Assembly: GCA_963826785.1 (NCBI GenBank)
Contig: CAWGYD010000008.1
Location: forward strand, 64,001-128,000
DNA: 64,000 nt
DNA from: an uncultured delta proteobacterium
GTDB taxonomy: Bacteria; Desulfobacterota; Desulfobacteria; Desulfobacterales; Desulfosalsimonadaceae
Direction of reading: 5' to 3'
How positions within the stretch are numbered: the first letter of the stretch is position 1; every line of letters starts with the position of its first letter. Positions 13,395-59,377 of the stretch are shown here, one piece after another. A program made the position numbers and the translations under genes. The notes below the pieces were generated by a model, which searched no databases, was not told where the DNA came from, and worked only from the letters and a program-made list of their open reading frames with translations.

Positions 13395-14544
13395 TTAAAT
13401 TTTGAAATTATATGCTGCCAACGCTGCTTTCAGACGGGGGGTCAGCAACCCCCCGTTGGTCGCTTGTATTCCGGCCGTCCCCCACTCAATATTTCCCTCG
13501 ATGATCACCGGCCCGACATCAGTGATGGCGATGTCCCATCCGATGGACTTGAGTTGAAAAAAGGCTTTTTGCGCCTTTTCTGCCAATAAGCACACCTCGT
13601 TCCAGAAGGGGACTTGAAAATTCTTGAATCTGACGTTTGTTTTTGGATGAGCCGTAACCGTGGTTCCAAAGTTCGGATGAAAGAACCCGGTTTCTTTTAG
13701 TTTGCCATTTGACAGGTTTATACCGACCACAATCCCTCCTGTGGAAAAATTGTCAGTGCAGTTTTCATCGGCGCCCGTTCTCAACATCCCGGCAAGCAAA
13801 ATAACCGACATTTCTTTTGTCAAAAAGGTTATGATCCGGATCGTGTTTACCGAGCATGGATTTAATTTTTTCATTTCCCTGTGCTGATCGATCCGTTCCT
13901 CAATGATAAAATCCCCTGCTTTAAACCTGGCTTCTGCGATTTCCAGTTCTGATCCGTGTTTAATCAGCATTTTGACCAGCTCATTTCCAGAAAGAAAATG
14001 AATCCCCAATCCCTGAACGCCCTTTGCCGGCTTAATCACGAAGGTACTTATTCAAATTATTATTCAAATAATCACATAAACTAATGCCGTCGCCAATTAC
14101 CCTTCCTTCATGAAAAATGCCGCACAGCTTTGGTGTCGGCAATTGTCGGCTCCGGCAATAACAATGAAAAGTATACTTATCATTGACGAGCATGGTGTAC
14201 TCGACATTCCATAATATGGAATACAACTGTCGCCTGATGAAAGGGGAATCCGGTTCGTCGAGATATGTGGCGAATTCGTGGCGTTTTTTGACATCAAATC
14301 GCCATAGCCGGTAATTTCTCGGGAGCATTCCACGAACAAAAAACAAGTACAGGTAATCCGATATAATAGACGCCGCATTTTTTGCCGGCTGCCCCGGTTC
14401 GCGATATGATTTGCTGCCCAATCCTTCAAAAAGGTTCGGCAGGCGCCGCAGGTGGGCAATCGCGTGACCCAGCAGCCTCGAGTAACGGACAGCTCTTGTG
14501 CCCATAGATTCACTTTGCCTTGGCATTGAATACGGAGGAATCAT
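13395..14544 (-). CDS. Sugar-transfer-associated ATP-grasp protein, split by a frameshift near 14043
   Basis: NDKY..LPTP (upstream ORF) continues into FVIKPAKGVQGLG, NPCSVNTIRI, DNFSTGG, IGWDIAIT..IEGN after removing one base. Confidence 0.8.
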
Positions 14545-14640: not shown

Positions 14641-17600
14641 TTACCGCATGGAAGCAGGCGGCTTCGAAAAATCCAAAAACTCATAGATGGGTTCGATGGA
14701 ATTCAAAAGGCTCAGGATCTCCTGATCGCTGTATCCGAGCAGATAGGATCTCAGATAATCATCGGCTGTATAAGTTCCGGAGTCCTTTGTGGCGCAAAAC
14801 ATTTTTCCGCGGTGGAACGTCCCCACATAATATTGGGCGGAGTTGCAGGATCCGTAGAACATTCGCCCGTATTTCATTTCTGCTTCCGGTATTTTGGCTC
14901 TGCGGGCATCCAGGATAACCTTCCCAAAGGTAATCGGGCTGCCGGTCGATCTCGAATAATAATGGGGTTTGTGGTGAAATGTATTGTCCGCATAGATCAG
15001 ACCGATAATATTGTATACAAAATCCGTTTCACGCTCCACGTCATACCCGTTGGGTCCGGACACGGTCAGGGTAACCGTATAAGCTCCCGGCTCCGTATAA
15101 GTGTGGGTCGGGTTATGCTCTGTGCTGACCGGGGATCCGTCTCCGAAATCCCACTCCCAGCTTGTAATTTCCCCGGCGCTTTGATCGATAAAATCCACGA
15201 CTGTTCGATCTGAGCCCAATCGGTTCAGGGACGTGAATTCCGCCTGGATCAAGGGCGATGTCCCAACCGCGATAAAATCGGTCTTGACCTCTGTATCGTG
15301 TTCCCCGGATGAATCGGTTACCCTGAGACTTACGGTGTAAAGCCCGGGATTCGCATAGGTGTGGGTCGGGTTCTCCAGGATGCTGTAGGTCCCATCGCCG
15401 AAATCCCAGTACCAATCCGTAATTCCTCCGGAGACATCCGACATGGAATAAAAAGAGCCCATCTGGACAAACTGGACCGCCAGGGGAGCGCCTCCCGATG
15501 TCACGTCGGCTCTGAATTCGGATTGGAGAATCTTTGCCGGATTCTCCAGGGCGCTTAAGAATAAAGGCATCCGCAATCACCGTCCCGTCCGCATCGTCAC
15601 TCACCTGGAAGGTGTAGGCGCCTTCGTCGAAGTAAAAAGCCCCCAGGGTGTTCGCGAGTTGTGTTTCCCGTTGGTCCACTTCGACAATACTTGATCCTCC
15701 CGCATGCTGGATCGTAAATTTGGCATTGGTGGCATTGGCCGGATCCGGATACCAGGACGCCAGAGCGGCATAATAGCCCGGATACTTCACCAGCAGGGTA
15801 AAAGTTGCGGTATTCTGACCGGTTCCGGGTAAATGGTACTGATAGTTATACCCCAAATAACCGGCTTCTCCCATATAACCCGCCCCGGCAACCTTTGCCA
15901 TCGGCCAGTTACCGACGACATCGAACCGGTTGAAATCGGAATCCGTGTTGGTGATAAAGTATTCGGGATTTGCCATCGGGTCCGGCGGGGCTGAACCATT
16001 GGGCCAGTCCCAGGCCGGAACGTTGGCGTCGGGAAACCTTTCGAGATAGCTTCCGTTCGACAGTTCCACCTTGTAGGTGTTCGGATCTCCCGGAATCTCG
16101 TATTTCAGATAATAATTATACGGCGGAGTTCCTTCGTCAAAAGTGTACGGCATGATTCCGCTGGAATAATCGCTGTAGATCGGCAGCCAGTTGGGATAGG
16201 CCTGGCCATATTGCATTCCGTCGATTTTGACCGACACCATATCGGTGGAAAAACTCATGAAGCGTTCGTCATCAATGAAATAGATATTGTCTATCTGTTG
16301 TCGGTAGACTTCTGACACAGTGGCAAAGGTGAGCCCCAATCCGAAATTGGCATGCCCATTGATAACGATGTGGGAATCCTGCTCTTTAAGGGCGGCATCC
16401 ATCGCCGCCGGCGTTCTCACGGTGTGAATGAAGTAGGTGATGTTTTTGTCCGTATTCGTATATACGTATACGCCGTTGTTTTCCACGGCGCCCATACTGG
16501 TGAGCATTTGCGTCGTGTGGGGGATAAACAAAGCGTCCCCGGCATATCCGTCGCAGAGATAAATATTTTCAGCGGCCGCGAGGATGTGAATATAATTTTG
16601 CCGGGTTTCGGTATCCGACCCCGAAGAATTTTCCACCGTAAGGGAAACCGTATAATCACCCGGTTCCAGATACTCATGAACCGGGTTTTCTTCCGTGCTG
16701 GTGTTTCCGTCACCAAAATTCCAGAGCCAGTCCGTCACATTCCCAAGGCTCATGTCGGTAAACTGAATCGTATATGGCGCTCCGCCGTATACGCTATCCG
16801 CGGAAAAATCGGCGACCGGAGGGCTTGCCTGGGCCACCCGGGTGAATTTCATTGCATCCGCGCACGTGCTCGATGGCCCGGGCTGAGCAGTAATCGTGAT
16901 GCGATAGCTGGTATTGGCCTCGAATAAATAATCGCCCAGGGTGTTCCACTTTCCTCCGTTGGCCTGCTGGTTCACCAACACGGTAGTGGAGCCTCCTGCA
17001 TACGCAATTTTAACTGGAACACTCATGCTCCTGGATGGCCACTCCGTCCACCACATGAAAATTTCATAATGATCTGAAACCACGGGTTGAAACGTCCAGG
17101 TATAGGTGGCGCCATCCCGGCTCCATAAAGAATTTGTCCCGTAGTAACCCGAAGCCCCGGAAACATACCAGGCTCCGGTATAAGAAGTGCCGGCCCCGCC
17201 ATTGTCGATGACGATTTCTTCAGGAATTTCATCGATGGTCAGGCTTTGAGTCACGGGTTGAGAAGCGGCTCCATCCTCGTCGTAAACCACAAAGGTGATC
17301 GTGTGGGTACCTTTGGAGAGCACATTTGTTGAAAATGATGAAAAATCGCTTAAATGCCCGTCGATATCCGAATCCCAACTATAGCCGGTCACGGTTCCGT
17401 CCGGATCTTCGCCGTGTCCGGAAAAGACAATCAGCGCATCAAGATTTGCCGGGTTTGGAGAAATGCTGTCGATATAAGCAGTTGGAGGAATATTTCCAAC
17501 GCTCAGACTGGCTTCAGCCGGAACCGACCATGCGCCTGCATCGTCTTGAACTCTGAATGTAATGGCGTGCACCCCATTTGAAAGGCCAGCCGAGGAAAAT

Positions 17601-18898
17601 GAAGGCTGGTCGCTCAGTTCCCCGTCGATGCTGGACTTCCAGGCATATGCCGATACACTGCCGTCGGTGTCCTCTCCGTGGCCGGTAAAGGTCACTTCCT
17701 GGCCTGCATCCGCCGGGTTGGGGGAAATGGAATCGATATTTGCCGTCGGTGTACTGTTCGTTTCCATAAAATTGAATTTGACCGCATCCGCACATGTGCT
17801 CGACGGGTACGGCTGGGATTTTATGCTGACTTTCCCTCCGGAATTGGTATCGAAACGGTAAACACCGAGGCTGTTCCATTTCCCGCCATTTTGTTGCTGA
17901 TTGATATTGATCGTCTCTGACCCGCCATCATACTGGATGGTGACCGGCACACTGGTGCTTCTCGAAGGCCACACCGTCCACCACATGGTCAGCTCATATT
18001 CGCCGGTCTGGGGTGGAGTGAAGTTCCAGGTGAATGTCGTCCCATCCCTGCTCCATACCGAATCAGGGCCATAGGGATTGGATGCGCCTGAAACTTCCCA
18101 AGTGCCGGTCTGGGAGGTGCCGGCGGCGCGATTATCGATGATGATTTCGGTGGGAACGCTGCCCACGATCAATGTCTGCGTCGCGGGCACGGACCAGAGG
18201 CCCTCCGCATCCTGGACGCTGAAGGAAATGATATGGGTGCCTTCGGTTAATGATGTCGTAAAAGACGCAACATCGCTCAAAAGACCGTCTATGCTCGATT
18301 CCCAACGATAGGCGGCAATGTCTCCCTCGGTATCCGCGCCTGAACCTTGAAACTCTATTATCTGTTGCGGCTCGGCCGGATTGGGATCAATCATGTCGAT
18401 GGAAGCAGTTGGCGGGGTATTGCCGGAGATGAATCGGTACCACACCGCATCTGCGCAAGTGCTGAGGGTCGCCCCGTAGGCGGCCGTAATCGTGACGGTG
18501 CCGCTCCCATTGAAAAAATAAGTCCCCAAACTGTTCCACTGCCCGGCATTTTCCTGCTGATTAACACTCAGGTTTTCCGTTCCGTTTGCATGATATATGG
18601 CAACAGGGATTTTTGTTGCTCTTGATTTATAAGCCGACCACCACATAAGCACCTCATAGGTGCCGGGAAGCTGGGAATTCATCTGCCAGGAATAGGTTAC
18701 CCCATCGCGCGAGGCCAGGCTGTCACCATCGTAGGGCAAGGTTCCTCCAGATGGATACCAGGCGCCTGTGAAGGAAGTGCCGGAATCGCCGTCATCGATC
18801 AGGACATCGCCAAACGCACTTCCGCATAAGAAAAATAGAACCAAAAATAGCAACACCGGCCAAGAATAAATAAAACCGCTTCCGTATTTTCGTTTCAT
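14641..18898 (-). CDS. Large secreted protein with golvesin-like and PKD domains, frameshifted near 15553
   Basis: Signal peptide; repeated IDN..GTS.TG.W..S..YG modules, PPTA.ID.I.PNPA Ig-like repeats, three WxWxFGDG PKD motifs. ADAFILK joins ALENPAKILQ after removing one base. Confidence 0.82.
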
Positions 18899-19192: not shown

Positions 19193-20519
19193 TTACGATA
19201 CAGATGAATCAGCCGACAATCGACTGGTGATGGATCGATGTTTGCCCGTCGCCCCGCGCTCAAGAAATTGAACCGGCACTACATCTATTTTTATCATTCC
19301 GCCTAAGATATCACGGAGATTGTTCAGAATCCGTCTTCTGACGTTTTCGATTTGGCTGTCTTGGTCGATGACGACATAAACGGTTATGTTGTAGTCGATA
19401 TCCTGATGTATTTTAAATTCCTTGACTGCGGAGATGGTCTCAACCTGGAACACCATCGTTTGGGGATCCAGTAATTTCCCGTTCGGCAGGACAATGAAAT
19501 CATCGGATCTTCCAACAATAGATTGAAAATACGGAAAGGTGCGGCCGCATGCGCATTTACTCTGTGATAATATACCGATATCTCCGATTTCATAGCGAAG
19601 ATAAGGCATCGAATAGTTATTCAAGGCGGTGATGACGATTTTCCCCTTCTCTCCGGGCGGCAGAGTTCTTCCATTTTCGTCATGGATTTCGACAATGACA
19701 TTATCGGCATGCCACATGAAGATTCTGCATCCTGCACTCAAAGCCGATTGCCGAAAATTCCAGGCATGAATAGTCATCGTACACTTTGCATTGGAATGCA
19801 TGTTCAACAGTGTTTCGAATACTGTCCGTTAACAGTTCCGAATTGGAGAGGATAAACTTGAGACCGAGTTTTGATGCCTGTTCTTTTGTAATCACCTTTG
19901 CAAGAAGGTAAAGAACGGATGGATATGCATTGAGTATTTGAGGACGAATGTCCAAAATTTTGGACAACTGCTTCTCCGCCGGCCATTCAAGCGGGAGATA
20001 GGACCTCCTGAGAAGGCCGAATTTCTGGATGGCCAGTTCCGTCACCGGTGGGCCATAACGGATGTAAACCGATTTGTACCAGGGCTTGTACCCGAAATCG
20101 CAGAGCTGCCGAAATTGCATCAAACGATAGAGGGCAGCCACTTTGTGATCCAGCAGCACATCGAGTTTTTTCCCCGAAGAACCGGACGTCATTCGAGATG
20201 AGCATCGATTTGGATCCACACGCCTTGAAGTGATCTTATCCGGATAGTTTTCAAGAATGATATCCTTGGTCAGCACCGGGATTTTACTCAAGTCGGTAAT
20301 TGAGCGTACATCCTGCGGCCGCAACGCCATAGCATCAAATAACGCTTTGTAATAAATTACATTTTCATAAGCATAATTCACAAGCTTTTGCAGCAGCATC
20401 GTCTGCATTTTCGCAAGTGATTTTTCGCTCTTCCATTGATTTACGAAAATCGCCGGAAGCCGCAGCGCATGATAGCCGTAATTGAAAACTGGATTCAAAA
20501 GAAAGCCTCGTTCTTTCAC
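19193..20519 (-). CDS. Phenylacetate-CoA ligase/CapK-like adenylate-forming enzyme, frameshifted near 19709
   Basis: TSGSSG, AYPS, YSCLE in upstream ORF; MPYLRYEIGD, GRSDD in downstream ORF. Confidence 0.85.
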
Positions 20520-28285: not shown

Positions 28286-29161
28286 TTATGCACCGCATTG
28301 TGTATATTTTTTCTTCAACTTGGAGCCGTATGCATGCTGAAGCATTTGATAAGTGCCCATCAGGATGACCAGTCCAAAGACGAACACAGCCATGCCTGAA
28401 AATTCGTGTAAAAAACCCTGCGCCACGCGGGCGCCGTAAAAATGCGCCAGTATGCCGGTCCCCGTTACCCTGATGATATTTGCAAAGATGGCGATGGGAA
28501 CGGTCAATGCAATCAGCAGCGCAGCACCGGGTGCGGCCATCCGGTTGTGATATACGAACAGGATGCCCAGCATCAGCATGGCCATCATCGATTGAATACC
28601 GCTGCAAGCTTGGGCTACTTCCAACTGTGTCCGCGCAAAATATAGGATGTTGCCTTCCTGATACACCGGGATCGAAACAAACTGGATCAAGGCAGCGGAA
28701 ATGTCGGTTGCCAGGTGCTGCAATGGAAGTGAGATAAGCGTTAAGATGGAGACCGGCACCGGTATCATAAAAAGCAAAAAGAAAAGTGGAAATGACAATT
28801 TTTTAAAAACGATTGCACCATAATTATAGAGCACCAATCCCATTAATGAAAAAACCATCATGCAGCGCGCGCTAACGGAAATGCCTCCCGCCAGACTTAA
28901 AACGTAGATCGACAGGCTCCCGAACAACAAAAATACGCCCCGCAAGTCCACCTGGATGGGGCAACCCTTGAGTTCAGGCCGCTTTTTCCATATGTAAAAA
29001 GCGGCGATCAACGGAACCAGCAATCCATGGGAATTATTGGGATCATCTGTCCACGCCTTTATCAATTGAGGGAATAATGGATAAAAGACGACCATCCACA
29101 TCGCAAAAAGGGTCAAACCTTTAACACTTAATAGTTTATGGGTTCTAAAAGAACCTGGCAT
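28286..29161 (-). CDS. Exosortase (EpsH/Xrt family), in frame with upstream DegT
   Basis: HGLLVP, VAQACSG (Cys), NIIRV (Arg), FLHEFSG (His), multiple TMs; own GGAG RBS before ATG 29161. Confidence 0.92.
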   Translation of the reverse strand: MPGSFRTHKLLSVKGLTLFAMWMVVFYPLFPQLIKAWTDDPNNSHGLLVPLIAAFYIWKKRPELKGCPIQVDLRGVFLLFGSLSIYVLSLAGGISVSARCMMVFSLMGLVLYNYGAIVFKKLSFPLFFLLFMIPVPVSILTLISLPLQHLATDISAALIQFVSIPVYQEGNILYFARTQLEVAQACSGIQSMMAMLMLGILFVYHNRMAAPGAALLIALTVPIAIFANIIRVTGTGILAHFYGARVAQGFLHEFSGMAVFVFGLVILMGTYQMLQHAYGSKLKKKYTQCGA

Positions 29162-30478
29162 TTGTACTCCCATTAAACGAAAATGCATGATGTGATGGGT
29201 GCGAGATGATCCGGAAATGAGAGTGCTCAACTCGAATAGAGATGATGCATTCGCATGAACTTTTTCAAAAATGCCGATGATCCTTTGTCGGTCTTTTGAT
29301 GACAGAAACCCATGCACCGGAAGGGTTAAGAGTCTTTCGGCGCACGCTTTTGCGCCGGGAAAATCCGTTGCGCAAGATTCATATTTGAGTTCGCCGATGG
29401 CATCTATCGAGTCCGGGTATGAAGGCATCAGGCCAAGTCCCTGCTGATCACTCATTTCAAGCAGATTTTCCCGCAGGGCGGCATTCTGAACCAGGACGGG
29501 AAACCGGAGTAAGGGATAGGCCGGTACCCGCCCGTTTGTTTTTGGAATTGATTCAATCCAGTCAAAATGACCCAAAGCATGCGCCCAGAAAGCCGCGTGA
29601 CCTGCACGCACCTGCTGAAATGCTGCGATGGCCATTTTCCAGTTTCGTGCCAGACCTGCCTGGAAAGCTGAAAATTGTTTAATGGGGAACTCGGGATCAA
29701 AAATAGTTTCCCCCAGTTTCAGCATCGGCATGGATTTCGGTATCCAGAAAAAGGAAGGATGCATAAAGGCGGACAGCGCAATGGCATATGCAAGATGATT
29801 CAATCGATGCGCTGAAGATTGCACAGCAAAATTGGGGATAACCGATTCGATGCGTTCTGCCATCCCGTCTGAGTTGGTGAGAACGATCCCGCCATCAACA
29901 GTGGAAAAGGCTTTGCCGCGGCCAAGGCTGAAAAAACCGATGTCTCCCAGGGTTCCCAGAAGTTTTTTATTGAAGACATTTCCCATGGCCTGAGCCGCAT
30001 CCTCGATGATGAATACCTCCGGATCGATTAGCAGCGTTCGTATTCGGTTTATATCAGAGGGGATGCCGAACAGGTGATTGCCGACAATCGCAAGAAGACG
30101 ATCCGTATGCTTAAGGGTGGCTTTAAGTTTTTCATCATCATAATTCAGGGTTGCCGGATTAACATCGCATAAACGCACCTTCAGCCCGGCTCTTATGATG
30201 GCGGATGGAACGGAATAGCATGTAAAGGCCGGTATGAGGACCTCGTTCCGGTCGGGAAAATTCTGTTTGAGCGCCCGGAGGATAATGGTCAAAGCAGCTT
30301 TTCCCGATGAGAGCAAAAAGCAGTGCTTGACCTTGAAATGGTCTTTGAGCGAAAGCATGAAATCATCAATTTCTGCCTGCCCGCGCATCACCCCTTTAAA
30401 GCCCCGGAAAACCGCATGGATAGGGATCGGGGCTGCGGCCGGAGGAAGGGTGCGCTTGATAAGCATACGATTGATCAC
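29162..30478 (-). CDS. DegT/DnrJ/EryC1/StrS PLP-dependent aminotransferase (no stop before the exosortase)
   Basis: SSGKAAL, IPAFTC, HLFG, IIEDAAQA, FSLGRGK, LTLPVH. Confidence 0.88.
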
Positions 30479-47090: not shown

Positions 47091-47585
47091 TCAACTCATC
47101 AGCCGTTTTCGTCTGGATGCGACGAGTCCACCCGCTATACCGAATCCCAGTAAAAGAAGGGTGGCGGGTTCGGGCACGGGGGATGTCGTATTATCACCGG
47201 GAGGATGCTTTTTCCAATCGGTTTTCTTCCATCCTTTTTTCATCCCCCTCATCCACAAGTCATAAGCACCACCGGATTTCCAATTTTTTGCATTTTTTAC
47301 AAAATTGAGATAAAATCCAAGTGCTTTACCCGTCTTGACCGCAGAAAAGCTGGTTGGCCCAAAGGGCGTCGTTTTCACTTCCCATTTTCCCGTGATTTTA
47401 TCCTGAGTGATGATCCAATTACCATGTTTCAAAAATAAGGGTTCTATGACAAAAGATGGATCTTTTGCGAATGAAGATGAATTACGCAAAAAATCAACCG
47501 TATTGAATATGGACCCTGCCGATGCCATGCCAATCCAGCAAAAAACAAATAAAATCGACAATGAAAAAATCATTCGTGTTCTCAT
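47091..47585 (-). CDS. PEP-CTERM protein
   Basis: AAGGA RBS, signal peptide ..ASA, C-terminal VPEPATLLLLGFGIAGGLVASRRKR. Confidence 0.92.
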   Translation of the reverse strand: MRTRMIFSLSILFVFCWIGMASAGSIFNTVDFLRNSSSFAKDPSFVIEPLFLKHGNWIITQDKITGKWEVKTTPFGPTSFSAVKTGKALGFYLNFVKNAKNWKSGGAYDLWMRGMKKGWKKTDWKKHPPGDNTTSPVPEPATLLLLGFGIAGGLVASRRKRLMS

Positions 47586-47687
47586 ACATGTTTCCTTTCT
47601 CACCCATTTAAGCGTTTCCCGGATTTGAGTCGATATATGCCCGTTCTTTATGCCTGCGAGTTCTTCAACCATTTGGCCTCATAATAC

Positions 47688-50572: not shown

Positions 50573-51874
50573 ATGAAAACTTATCTTCGTCATATCCTTG
50601 TTCTTGCCATCGGAATCGCGTCAACTATCTGTTTCATGCAGGGCGGTGCCGGCGCCGCGGTGACGATGTCTCCGGGCATATCCGTTCAAAATACCTATTC
50701 CGACAATATCAACCTGGCTTCGGAAAATGAGAGGCACGATTTCATCACTTCGCTCGGCCCCAGCATCAACTTGGGCATGACCGGGCGGTCTACTGCTTTC
50801 AACCTTTCCTATCAACCGGTTTACGCAAGTTATTTGCGGTTCCCCCGATATAACACCATGCGGCATCGAGCAGTGATGGACGGTTCCCGTCAGATTTCCA
50901 GAACGACACGATTCGAATTCAACGACAATTATCAGTATACTGAAGAACCGCTTTATATCAGTGAAGATGCGCCTTTAGAAGTGGATACCGACATCCTGAG
51001 AGGCAGAAATCCCTATCATATGAATACATCCCGAATCGGTGTTATCAACCAGTTCGGTCCGGAAAATGTTATCGACCTTCAATATGAATATTATTTTCTT
51101 AAGAATGAAAACGATACGATTGAGGACCGCGAATATTATCAACCCGATGTAACGATTACTTTCTGGCCATCTCCCAACCGCATCGGGACTGAATCGGAAA
51201 TCAGTTTTACGCGCAGAAATTTCGATGATTCCGGGGACTATGATGATGTTTATGGGAGACTGAGATTGATACGGCGTTTGGGTCCTCATTTTGACTTCTA
51301 TGCACAATATACGCACGAATTGACCGACTATGTCGATGTGGGCAATGATTATCAGGTCGCCAGCCCTTTGCTGGGATTTATCTGGAATGAATACATGAAT
51401 GCGACTTTTGAGGTGAGTTTCGGTTATTTCAATCAGGAAAAAGAAAAAAATGGAGATGAAAGCGGACCGGTAGGAACGATTGAGACCCGCTATACGTTTC
51501 AAAAAGGGACTGCTGTTTCGATAGCGGGCAGTACCGGATATGATCAGGACACTTCCGGTGCTGAAGTTCTCGGGTTTAACAAGTATTACACGTTCATCGG
51601 AACGCTAAAGCATCCATTGAGCCGGCGATTGATCAGCAATTTTACCGCCGGGTATCGTCAATCCCTCTATACGGAACTGGATCCGGAAAGACAGGATTCC
51701 ATTTGGGAATCTACTGCCGGATTGACATATCAGCCGTTGCCATGGATGACCCTGGAAGTGAAGTATTCTTTCCGCAAAGTCAATTCGGATATCAATGCAG
51801 ATGATTACACGGAGAACCGGGCCGCAATTGCCGTGTTTCTGAATCCGCGCAAGCCGGTGATGTTAATCCGTTAG
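50573..51874 (+). CDS. Outer-membrane beta-barrel, EPS/PEP-CTERM associated
   Basis: Signal peptide, YSDNINL..DFIT..P, amphipathic strands, DYTENR near the C-terminus. Confidence 0.82.
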   Translation: MKTYLRHILVLAIGIASTICFMQGGAGAAVTMSPGISVQNTYSDNINLASENERHDFITSLGPSINLGMTGRSTAFNLSYQPVYASYLRFPRYNTMRHRAVMDGSRQISRTTRFEFNDNYQYTEEPLYISEDAPLEVDTDILRGRNPYHMNTSRIGVINQFGPENVIDLQYEYYFLKNENDTIEDREYYQPDVTITFWPSPNRIGTESEISFTRRNFDDSGDYDDVYGRLRLIRRLGPHFDFYAQYTHELTDYVDVGNDYQVASPLLGFIWNEYMNATFEVSFGYFNQEKEKNGDESGPVGTIETRYTFQKGTAVSIAGSTGYDQDTSGAEVLGFNKYYTFIGTLKHPLSRRLISNFTAGYRQSLYTELDPERQDSIWESTAGLTYQPLPWMTLEVKYSFRKVNSDINADDYTENRAAIAVFLNPRKPVMLIR

Positions 51875-51897
51875 CCGAAGGATAAATTGGAGGGTGT

Positions 51898-54873
51898 ATG
51901 CGAAAAAAACTAAAACTTTTCATCGGGATGGTTCTCATCCTGATGGGATTGAACCGGTTTCATTTTCAGGAAGCACATGCCCTGGATTTCAATGGTGTAA
52001 TCGATGCCGACAGCCGTTGGACTACCGCGGACAGCCCCGTCCATATAACGGGCGACGTGCATGTCGAGCCGAACACCTCGTTGACGATTGAACCCGGTGT
52101 TGACGTAATTTTCAAATCACCCGCTGATATCGGGAAAGGATATTCCATCCGTGTCGATGGAACGCTGATCGCCCGGGGGAAAACACATCAACCCATTATA
52201 TTTACCGCAGAAGACAGATCCATACCCTGGGGGGCAATCCTCTTTGGCGACGAAAGCAGGGATTGGAATCAAACCACAACAAGCGGATGTATTTTAGAAT
52301 ATTGTGTCTTTGAATATGGCGGAAATGAACCCTCCGGCAAAGGCATGATCGTCGCCATTGATGCCGCGCCCTTTATCACCCGCAATGCAATCCGATTCGG
52401 TGCGGCTGCAGGTATTTCAGCATTGGTTTCAGATGATCCGGCAGCGGTATCCACCCTGAGCGGAAATATCCGGATCGTTTCCAACCAGATATATAACAAC
52501 CCAACCGGAATCCGGTTGCTGGCAGAGGGAGGAATCATCGAGGACAATTATTTCCTCAACAACGGTCAGGCAATCGATCTTCAGGTCCGCACCAATGATG
52601 TGACGATTTCCGATAATACCGTGGTGAGTTCGTCTTCCAACCGATCCGGGAGCGATATCCGGCTTCTATTAAATGAAGCGCACAGCGGGATAGCCGCTTA
52701 CCAGTGGCGGCAAACCGGAGGGACGCCCGTTGAACTGATCCATCCGCAAAACGCCCGGGCATCCTTTTTATCGCCCGATCCCGGCAATGGCGTGGAAAAT
52801 TTAACATTTGATCTGACCGTGACCAATAAAAACGGACTCCAGGCGCATGAAACAGTAAAGATCGACATTGTCGGCGAAAATCCGCCACCTGTTGCCAAAA
52901 CCGGTGCCGATCTCAATGTTCAGCTTCCCGAAGAAGAAGGTGAAGAATTGGTCATAATGCTCAGCGGGGAAAATTCCGTCGATCCTTACCTGGGAATAGT
53001 TAAATACGCATGGAAACAGACGGAAGGGATAACGGTAGATCTGCAGGGAGCCGATACCGTCGAACCGACGTTTACCGTTCCCGCATCCGTATCCGCCGGC
53101 GATCGAATGACCTTTCAATTGACAGTGACAGACCAGGCCGGACTGACCTCGACGGATTCAGTCGATATCATATTTTACGATGACAATATCTTCCCGGTTG
53201 CAGCAGCAGGCAATGATCAAAGGGTTTCTCAGGGAAATGCCGTTTTTCTCGATGGTTCCGCATCAAGAGATCCAGACGGCAGCATATCGGCATATGAGTG
53301 GGTACAGACAAACGGATTGCCGGTAAATCTGATCAATCCGAACACCGCAAAACCGCGCTTTGAACCACCCGAAGGAAGCAATGTTCCAGAAGTGCTGACT
53401 TTCAGATTGAAGGTTACGGATAATGGCGGACTGCAGGATTTCGATGATATCGCCGTCACCGTAAATGGCACCTTGACAGCCGGCGCCGAAATCAGCTTTT
53501 CTGACGATGGTATGATCATTCTGGATGGAAGTGCGTCTTTGGACCGGAACGCCGCCGCGACTGTCGATATTGTATCCAACAATTTTTTGGCAAAAGAGGC
53601 CGGCACGGGACTGCTGGCCATCACGGCCAATGAAAACGCCTCCTATGCTTTGAACGTTACCTGGAACAATCTCAACACCGACGAGAAGAAGGGTTATCTC
53701 GTCTATCTCCATGACTGGCCGATCGAATCATCAGCGCCCCTTGACATGCCGGGCAACTGGTGGGGCGTCAGTGACGCATTGACGATTGAATCCTTCATAT
53801 ATGATCAGGATGAAAATTATAGTTTACCGGCAGTGGAATTCCGCCCGTTTGCAGGGGGAAAAATACCCGGGATCGGATCATCACTTCCCTATCCCCCGCT
53901 TGCGGATGCCGGTCCCGATATGGAAGCGGTTACCGACACTTTAGTCACCCTGGATGGGAGCCGCTCCTATGATCCCGAGAACATCGCGCAATATCGATGG
54001 AAACAAACCGGGGGGCCGATGGTGGATCTCAAAAACGCGAACCAGGCGAAGGCTTCATTCATTGCCCCGCCCGGCGGCCCTGATGGGGCCGATCTTCAAT
54101 TCGAACTGAGTGTTTCAACCGACGGCGCTTTTACCCACAGCGATACGGCAAACGCCGCCATCAGGCCTGAAAGCGATCTTCCCACCGTAGACGTGGGCGG
54201 ATGTTTTATTCAAACGGCCGCATCCCAGCATCTGAATCATGCGCTTTTTCTCATTTTTCCAATTTTGATTCTGATAATTTTTTTAAACTTGCTGGCCCGG
54301 TTTTTATCACTGCGTTTCAAATTGCCGGCAGTATGTATTTTCCTGACGATGATGTTCATCATCGGGGCTCCCGCCCGGGCCGGATATCTTTCTGTGGGGG
54401 GCGGAGCCGGAGGAGATGCCGACGATTACAACGTAACACTTGAAACCGGCGCCAAAGATATCCGGGCCGGCAACCTTGATCTGTTGTTTGGTGTCGGAAT
54501 CTTTTTGATTCCCCATTCGGATGATGATTTCCCGGATGACACGATTTCCTTCCCATGCCCGAATGTGGATTGCATCCGATTCGACACCGCAAGAAAAGGA
54601 AATGAGGTCGGTTTCTTGGGAAAACTTGGGATTGAAATCGGGTCCAGCGATTTTTATGTGTCGGGCATCGGCGGATTTACGGCTTACACGGAAAGCGAAA
54701 TTTCCTTTTCACCTGCGACGGGCCGCTATTATGAAGAATCTTCGGACAGCACGGTCGAAGCGCTATATGGCGGCGGAATCAGCTATTTCATCGATCAAAA
54801 ATGGAAAATCGTTCTTGAAGTGGACTACGACAACATCCGGGGGGTAACCGGTTTGGCCGGTTTGCACTGGTAA
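51898..54873 (+). CDS. Secreted beta-helix/PKD protein with internal GGCFI motif and C-terminal OM barrel-like domain
   Basis: WTTADSP..ITGDV.V..LTIEPGV start, GNWWG, PKD-like repeats, GGCFIQTAA, two hydrophobic segments, ends GLHW. Confidence 0.8.
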   Translation: MRKKLKLFIGMVLILMGLNRFHFQEAHALDFNGVIDADSRWTTADSPVHITGDVHVEPNTSLTIEPGVDVIFKSPADIGKGYSIRVDGTLIARGKTHQPIIFTAEDRSIPWGAILFGDESRDWNQTTTSGCILEYCVFEYGGNEPSGKGMIVAIDAAPFITRNAIRFGAAAGISALVSDDPAAVSTLSGNIRIVSNQIYNNPTGIRLLAEGGIIEDNYFLNNGQAIDLQVRTNDVTISDNTVVSSSSNRSGSDIRLLLNEAHSGIAAYQWRQTGGTPVELIHPQNARASFLSPDPGNGVENLTFDLTVTNKNGLQAHETVKIDIVGENPPPVAKTGADLNVQLPEEEGEELVIMLSGENSVDPYLGIVKYAWKQTEGITVDLQGADTVEPTFTVPASVSAGDRMTFQLTVTDQAGLTSTDSVDIIFYDDNIFPVAAAGNDQRVSQGNAVFLDGSASRDPDGSISAYEWVQTNGLPVNLINPNTAKPRFEPPEGSNVPEVLTFRLKVTDNGGLQDFDDIAVTVNGTLTAGAEISFSDDGMIILDGSASLDRNAAATVDIVSNNFLAKEAGTGLLAITANENASYALNVTWNNLNTDEKKGYLVYLHDWPIESSAPLDMPGNWWGVSDALTIESFIYDQDENYSLPAVEFRPFAGGKIPGIGSSLPYPPLADAGPDMEAVTDTLVTLDGSRSYDPENIAQYRWKQTGGPMVDLKNANQAKASFIAPPGGPDGADLQFELSVSTDGAFTHSDTANAAIRPESDLPTVDVGGCFIQTAASQHLNHALFLIFPILILIIFLNLLARFLSLRFKLPAVCIFLTMMFIIGAPARAGYLSVGGGAGGDADDYNVTLETGAKDIRAGNLDLLFGVGIFLIPHSDDDFPDDTISFPCPNVDCIRFDTARKGNEVGFLGKLGIEIGSSDFYVSGIGGFTAYTESEISFSPATGRYYEESSDSTVEALYGGGISYFIDQKWKIVLEVDYDNIRGVTGLAGLHW

Positions 54874-55804: not shown

Positions 55805-59377
<3,573 letters not shown>

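Follow-up and report, generated by a model that had tools for sequence, protein, structure and literature searches.

A predicted envelope polyprotein with an internal cysteine tag, a second signal peptide and an outer-membrane barrel in an uncultured desulfobacterium

Can a single bacterial open reading frame (ORF) supply two different envelope proteins? This question is raised by a gene in a 64,000-nucleotide stretch of DNA, hereafter the window, from an uncultured delta proteobacterium of the Desulfosalsimonadaceae (assembly GCA_963826785.1, contig CAWGYD010000008.1, positions 64,001 to 128,000). The gene, at 51898-54873 on the plus strand, is one uninterrupted frame of 991 aa preceded by a GGAGG ribosome site (51889-51893). 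A sequence-only reading had described its product as an exported passenger, a GGCFI motif (here the CFI tag), a transmembrane helix, the basic segment RFLSLRFK, a second signal peptide and a small outer-membrane (OM) barrel, and all of its coordinates were confirmed. The best overall explanation, to which we assign a probability of about 0.62, is that this product would be a precursor that signal peptidase I cleaves behind Ala828, giving two partner proteins.

Junction, barrel and homologs

The junction reads PARA-G: Gly829, encoded at 54382, opens a stretch of 163 aa with Trp as its last residue. Comparison was made across 55 fused proteins, 54 of which were parsed for the CFI motif, the -3/-1 positions and the C-terminus. 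Small residues occupy -1 and -3 of the predicted cleavage site in 54/54, with Ala at -1 in 50/54, while 11 residue types occur at -2. The mean hydropathy (Kyte-Doolittle, KD; 17 residues) of helix 1 is at least 1.6 in 52/55, and all 55 have at least two Lys/Arg between the two helices, with a median of 0 acidic residues. Column identity is 0.92 at the CFI tag and 0.73 in the barrel; it amounts to 0.30-0.38 across spacer, helix 1, loop and h-region, and to 0.44 in the N-terminal signal. The linker is read as a signal peptide because -3/-1 is kept, -2 varies and identity is no higher than in the N-terminal signal. At the sequence level, such a pattern marks a signal peptide retained for its properties, the call being based on hydropathy and motif counts. 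The internal n-, h- and c-regions with small -3/-1 residues are those of a signal peptidase I polyprotein.

The C-terminal part is predicted to be a barrel, as had been proposed. An AlphaFold2 (AF2) model of the last 237 residues (117-sequence alignment, mean pLDDT 87.8) has eight long strands behind two helices, and all six Foldseek matches at E<=0.001 are OmpA or Ail. The eight amphipathic antiparallel strands and the aromatic C-terminus, a Trp in 54/54 parsed fused proteins, are of the OmpA/OmpX type. A model of the full-length protein (pLDDT 86.5) agrees with the C-terminal one, and its first barrel strand begins at residue 828-829. As this strand starts at the cleavage site, leaving no periplasm-spanning linker, the models suggest that without cleavage the barrel would be unable to reach the outer membrane.

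Within the passenger, Pfam models detect a right-handed beta-helix plus four K319L-like PKD domains. Foldseek searches with the full model returned tandem Ig/cadherin/RTX-adhesin stalks at low TM-scores, about 0.1, and at such scores the fold search revealed no function for the beta-helix. The passenger is probably an adhesin or matrix-binding protein, given the gene context in an exopolysaccharide (EPS) locus.

The architecture is not unique to the window. A profile search against longer proteins gave 48 matches, 47 besides the query, and these 47 proteins of 710-1764 aa share the junction and the barrel. Of the 114 barrel representatives, the majority stand alone, measuring about 175-200 aa and carrying a signal peptide of their own, and their mature part starts at the same junction as Gly829 of the window protein. 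Among 300 genomes of the class, 16 genomes other than the window's own possess the barrel, 10 in fused and 6 in split form. Read-through without a stop was found at 11 loci from the 10 other fused genomes. In the split loci, the PKD passenger stops shortly after the CFI motif without a transmembrane helix, and the next gene opens with an ordinary signal, the predicted cleavage site of which aligns with Ala828/Gly829. Since split passengers lack it, helix 1 appears only where the topology requires it. The earlier proposals that one ORF yields two envelope proteins, and that signal peptidase releases the barrel, thus gain comparative support from the two-gene versions and from the -3/-1 pattern.

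In a quick tree of 73 barrels, in which 35/69 branches are unresolved and the direction of change between fused and split is not fixed, the labels require 3 (fused) and 4 (split) changes; with well-supported branches only, the numbers are at least 2 and 3. The split copies of genome G296, together with the standalone P0061, are sister to the fused clade of the window (SH-aLRT 98). One fused gene (L014, genome G116) still has, where its second signal begins, an ATG accompanied by a purine-rich site and is a possible intermediate between split and fused forms.

The same layout recurs with barrels that show no detectable relationship to that of the window protein. A second fused protein of the window's genome (C10:104176-105876; L002:8177-9877, minus strand) combines three FN3 domains, a CFI tag and the hairpin with a different barrel. 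No similarity was found between the two barrels in a comparison of a shallow profile with one sequence, which leaves room for remote kinship. This second family has nine full-length relatives in 120 genomes; seven possess the hairpin, and two (L028, L030) join the CFI tag directly to the barrel. Furthermore, among the 30 best NF041770 (CFI-box-CTERM) loci of the phylum, of which 29 were parsed, 3 run on into a barrel preceded by a second signal; two of these barrels belong to the MXAN_2562 family above cut-off and one is TraB-like below cut-off. In another 2 of the 30, the gene that follows encodes such a barrel, as confirmed for one of them by hidden Markov model (HMM). The NF040596 cut-off is reached by L055 and L063 (fused) and by L066 (split), which are CFI-box versions of the SgmI/MXAN_2562 pair. 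In L040 (G374), a CFI-box-CTERM is joined via a second signal to the TraB-like barrel (E 2.7e-12, below cut-off), a fusion of the TraA/TraB type outside the myxobacteria.

In the proposed mechanism, Sec would export the passenger until helix 1 halts transfer, the basic loop staying in the cytoplasm. The retained second signal would then re-export the barrel, which would be released and inserted by BAM; we consider this part quite likely, because Sec export, stop-transfer, re-initiation, signal peptidase I release and BAM insertion combine established envelope biology with comparative evidence. For the passenger, the chances are about even that the Cys of the CFI tag receives a lipid and that a CPBP protease, aided by an upstream membrane/HEAT partner (see below), trims the chain behind it. 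Somewhat less probable is that the passenger would reach the surface via type II secretion, adhesin and docking-partner barrel then working together at the EPS locus like TraA with TraB. Lipidation, trimming and T2SS (type II secretion system) display are drawn from the analogy with MrtX and TraA, and docking or stabilisation of the passenger by the barrel is a guess from gene linkage. The fusion would fix a 1:1 supply of passenger and barrel.

Table 1. Coordinates of the window protein, its tag-bearing companions and associated genes (window positions unless a contig is given).
Feature	Position	Strand	Basis
Predicted N-terminal Sec signal peptide, aa 1-28, ending AHA	51898..51981	+	Sequence; helix 4-20 in model; hydrophobic leaders in homologs
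Right-handed beta-helix, first part, aa 29-260	51982..52677	+	PF13229 33.1 bits, above cut-off; model
Three K319L-like PKD (Ig-like) domains, aa 261-525	52678..53472	+	PF22352 E 3e-54, 4 stretches; model
Short-strand region, probably second beta-helix part, aa 526-663	53473..53886	+	Secondary structure pattern; assignment inferred
Fourth PKD domain, aa 664-757	53887..54168	+	PF22352; model
CFI tag GGCFI, Cys769 at 54202-54204	54196..54210	+	C769 and F770 invariant in 53/53 aligned; C-F-[ILV] in 54/54 parsed
Transmembrane helix 1, aa 783-801, predicted stop-transfer	54244..54300	+	17-residue KD mean 3.08
Basic loop RFLSLRFK, predicted cytoplasmic n-region of second signal	54298..54321	+	Charge counts between helices
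Second signal peptide, h-region plus c-region (last residues PARA); signal peptidase I predicted to cut after Ala828	54331..54381	+	-3/-1 pattern; standalone homologs
8-stranded OM beta-barrel (aa 829-991) with a conserved CPNxxC loop and Trp at the C-terminus	54382..54873	+	AF2, Foldseek; PF13505 17.1 bits, below 28.7 cut-off
TIGR03016-like OM barrel of PEP-CTERM/EPS locus, 23 nt before gene	50573..51874	+	70.4 bits, below cut-off
144-aa FN3 protein, bare CFI tag, ends 16 aa past Cys, no transmembrane helix	31542..31976	-	Sequence
Unrelated exported proteins, bare CFI end	C4:180277-182835, C8:251273-253009, C10:12131-13402, C1:348729-349712, C1 near 73203		
Two-gene unit: 504-aa membrane/HEAT protein, then Rce1-like protease	G000:C10:48226-50348 (L110, L118)		Homology, adjacency

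The CFI tag and its candidate processing machinery

The tag resembles those of families NF041763 and NF041770, in which a Gly/Ser-rich linker leads to an invariant C-F-[ILV] after an exported passenger. The NF041763-type arrangement, with the motif after a flexible linker that ends the passenger, is present in 54/54 parsed fused proteins, and the motif is terminal in the split orthologs. The motif of the window protein is not among the 10 matches of its genome to NF041763 (14 positions, cut-off 15.9 bits) at E<=10, although other proteins of this genome pass. NF041770 (69 positions, 40-bit cut-off) has 0 matches in the genome but is matched in 49/151 genomes of the phylum. The window motif, unlike NF041770, lacks the RD-LL-N-G-YY middle, which its genome places in a separate membrane protein.

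In the genome, five ORFs of 100 aa or more terminate in a bare CFI tag (a sixth regular-expression match looks spurious), and one further bare tag lies in a frameshifted gene. The four intact ORFs have signal peptides by inspection. Among these genes, one follows a TonB-receptor-like gene, two are apparently frameshifted, and a second copy of the tag-coding end at C10:13358 lies at 13595. The FN3 protein with a CFI tag, pointed out by the sequence-only reading, does exist in the window and is likely a second protein on which the same tag system acts. Of the top 30 NF041763 loci of the class, a sample biased toward what the model favours, 25 end within 15 aa past the Cys and 2 extend further; the rest comprise 1 spurious match and 2 unparsed loci. 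In the papers searched, no full-text mention was found of the CFI-box, for which NCBIfam models exist.

A candidate for the enzyme that would process the tag was found on another contig. The genome holds three CPBP proteases, all under the cut-offs of the Mrt models. One of them (C10:49566-50348; best score MrtJ, 39.6 of 75 bits) carries EExxR and HxxxN motifs and lies outside the exosortase locus. Its relatives occur in 70/120 genomes: in 41 of the 43 CFI-positive genomes and in 29 of the 77 others. The two CFI-positive genomes that lack a relative have single weak matches in short frames. A control protease (L067), present in 2/120 genomes, is too rare to serve as a fair lineage control. At L117:1588-3203, a CFI-ending ORF converges on the CPBP gene, and the two share their last seven residues, which may be an inverted-repeat assembly artefact.

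Directly upstream of the protease lies its partner, the 504-aa membrane/HEAT protein, which adjoins the protease in 66 of the 69 genomes having both. Four of five partner members scanned weakly match NF041770 positions 19-44. With a profile of the CFI-box-CTERM middle, from which the CFI peptide was excluded, the partner ranks first among the 21,971 ORFs of the genome (E 0.008, against 0.84 for the runner-up); each of the 18 members extracted reaches E<0.04, and the hhalign value is 93.5%. The shared segment, RD-LL-N-G-YY, covers the most conserved residues of the partner. Of the 49 genomes in the phylum sample that have a long CFI-box-CTERM domain, 3 were found to encode the partner, which fits a division between domains acting in cis and a partner acting in trans but also a simple lineage restriction. 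A T2SS cluster begins about 4 kb from the protease pair, with GspD above cut-off 8 kb away. Because of co-occurrence, adjacency and the shared module, the protease and its partner are candidates for the CFI sorting machinery. The neighbouring exosortase was set aside as the CFI enzyme, the split forms lying outside EPS loci. Thus, of the sorting system suggested earlier beside this exosortase, the system itself and its little-described nature find comparative support, whereas the candidate enzyme is a CPBP/CAAX-type protease encoded elsewhere.

Taken jointly, the following picture may be drawn, although we rate it as tentative, with the odds somewhat against all of it holding together. Desulfobacteria would use a C-terminal Cys tag without a transmembrane helix (C-F-I and a few residues) as a bacterial counterpart of the CaaX box of eukaryotes. 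Its processing would fall to a dedicated Rce1-like protease and a partner membrane protein, the partner giving in trans what the long CFI-box-CTERM domains hold in cis. The window gene would be a true polyprotein in which the tag is embedded together with a stop-transfer helix and a second signal, delivering adhesin and docking barrel in equal amounts.

Competing explanations

Several observations weigh against a cleaved precursor with a processed tag. Residues 769-783, the CFI segment, are disordered in the full model (pLDDT under 50), with no sign of docking. The tag is separated from helix 1 by a spacer of 11 residues, while most described Cys-CTERM signals abut their transmembrane helix (bioRxiv 10.1101/2023.06.07.544157). 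The window motif scores with neither CFI family model, and the hairpin-less L028 and L030 indicate that a second signal is not always needed. Moreover, the barrel tree is poorly resolved, and its G296 split copies stem from an assembly with apparent frameshifts. Finally, the protease profile tracks lineage, and 29 protease-positive genomes are without an NF041763 match; as related genomes are not independent, the Fisher value for the co-occurrence cannot be used.

The same spacer, unlike that of most described CPBP substrates, favours a passenger that stays in the periplasm, anchored in the inner membrane by helix 1, with the CFI tag as an uncleaved binding or structural element and only the barrel released by signal peptidase. 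Many long CFI-box-CTERM proteins likewise retain a transmembrane tail where the partner was not found (46/49 genomes). We consider such an anchored passenger unlikely, since split orthologs without an anchor still keep the Cys motif, 25 of the 30 top NF041763 loci end shortly past the Cys, and a beta-helix with an Ig stalk suits a surface protein. Much less probable is an autotransporter-like chain, left whole or cut late, in which the barrel would export or directly display the passenger. The hairpin-less fusions and the order of passenger and barrel speak for it. Type Va autotransporters possess a 12-stranded translocator barrel of ~280 aa with a linker helix in the pore, and the window protein resembles them in its signal peptide, beta-helical passenger and C-terminal barrel with an aromatic end. 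It differs in its inner-membrane hairpin and eight strands, and membership is ruled out by the 163 aa, the strand number, the OmpA/Ail matches and the absence of any autotransporter family match in the model scans. The earlier distinction from a classical autotransporter was hence justified. In addition, two hydrophobic helices flank a basic loop in 55/55 fused proteins, and the same pair also occurs as two genes. As 8-stranded barrels have no protein-conducting pore, export of the passenger through the predicted barrel, also envisaged earlier, is unlikely.

Slightly less probable still is that the barrel is made from an internal translation start, which needs no cleavage of a shared precursor. 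The in-frame ATG of L014 at the n-region and a Met within the basic segment in 6/55 proteins agree with this, but in-frame starts with a Shine-Dalgarno match are found in 7/8 split loci and in only 2/10 parsed fused loci. The window gene is not one of these two: it has no in-frame internal start with a match of at least 4 nt. Conservation effectively refutes the idea that sequencing or assembly errors artificially joined two genes. Apparent frameshifts do occur elsewhere in this assembly; the read-through, however, is common to 47 long homologs and 10 other genomes, and comes with a transmembrane helix that is absent from the split forms. A precursor cut by signal peptidase I into passenger and barrel is, consequently, the reading retained here.

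Known systems and genomic context

An adhesin, an internal Cys tag and a barrel in a single protein is a concept already published for Myxococcus xanthus MXAN_5598. In the passage on this protein, an adhesin and an internal MYXO-CTERM are followed by an OM beta-barrel and an OmpA domain; it is proposed to stem from the fusion of a TraA/TraB-like pair and its N-terminal part is proposed to be processed (PMC11980579). The window protein shares this order in a single ORF but has a CFI tag instead of MYXO-CTERM, a different barrel and no OmpA domain. It also has a second signal peptide, which that passage does not mention for MXAN_5598, as well as split orthologs with a tag lacking the transmembrane helix. 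What this locus adds is a distinct barrel family in fused and split forms, the helix-less tag of the split orthologs and, from profile comparison, the homology between the partner of the protease and the CFI-box-CTERM domain.

A two-gene analogue is formed by SgmI (MXAN_2561, NF045522) and MXAN_2562 (NF040596), described as a tagged Ig/FN3-type surface protein followed by a small OM barrel, with a fitness profile resembling that of EPS and lipopolysaccharide mutants (bioRxiv 10.64898/2026.08.28.747804). The pairing of a tagged surface protein with a small OM barrel is the same. In the window, on the contrary, both are in one ORF, the passenger consists of beta-helix and PKD domains, and neither the whole protein nor its barrel matches NF040596 (100-bit cut-off) at E<=1.

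In the myxosortase-type systems MrtX, MrtJ and MrtS, the tags described in the sources consist of a motif, a transmembrane helix and a basic cluster (bioRxiv 10.1101/2023.06.07.544157; PMC11980579). For MrtX, which was co-expressed in E. coli, and for TraA, cleavage needs the Cys, lipidation itself being still proposed there (PMC11980579). An invariant Cys tag, an Rce1-like CPBP protease and a T2SS are common to these systems and the one considered here. However, most CFI tags here end 7-15 aa past the Cys without a transmembrane helix, and the protease is under all Mrt cut-offs. The window protein has no MYXO-CTERM model match, and its genome has no myxosortase above cut-off.

To our knowledge, the literature contains few bacterial polyproteins that are split at an internal signal peptide, and a search for them gave no comparable bacterial case among the matches listed. 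The cytochrome b-c1 precursor FbcH of Bradyrhizobium japonicum is reportedly split in this way. Like the window gene, it would yield two envelope proteins from one gene, but its products are inner-membrane respiratory subunits without a sorting tag or an OM barrel. The coexistence of fused, split and hairpin-less versions provides natural controls supplied by evolution, and a named candidate protease pair makes CFI processing testable. The wider question of why Cys-tagged surface proteins such as TraA and SgmI accompany small OM barrels is thereby sharpened.

The window gene lies in a PEP-CTERM/exopolysaccharide locus with PrsK, PrsT, exosortase and EpsI. A TIGR03016-like gene is upstream in 5/5 fused loci examined. 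Family-model scans gave no PEP-CTERM match (PEP motif, transmembrane helix, basic cluster) in the window protein; the neighbour at 47091-47672 has one. In the split loci, a TolC-like gene comes after the pair in 4/5 examined (L074, L075, L076, L078), and three show adaptor and peptidase genes; where the contig reaches far enough, genes for an adaptor, an M50-like peptidase and a SecA-like protein come next. A giant RTX-repeat protein is encoded upstream of the split pair in L074, and these clusters possibly export giant adhesins.

Several genes of the window (15113-18898, 14641-15576, 13395-14544, 19193-20519 and 55805-59371) are apparently broken into overlapping frames. They include a PKD protein, an ATP-grasp protein, a CoA ligase and a pyruvate:ferredoxin oxidoreductase, and suggest insertion or deletion errors in the assembly. 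At 28286-30478 on the minus strand, a 730-aa ORF, either a true fusion or the result of a lost stop codon, joins a DegT-type sugar aminotransferase to the exosortase.

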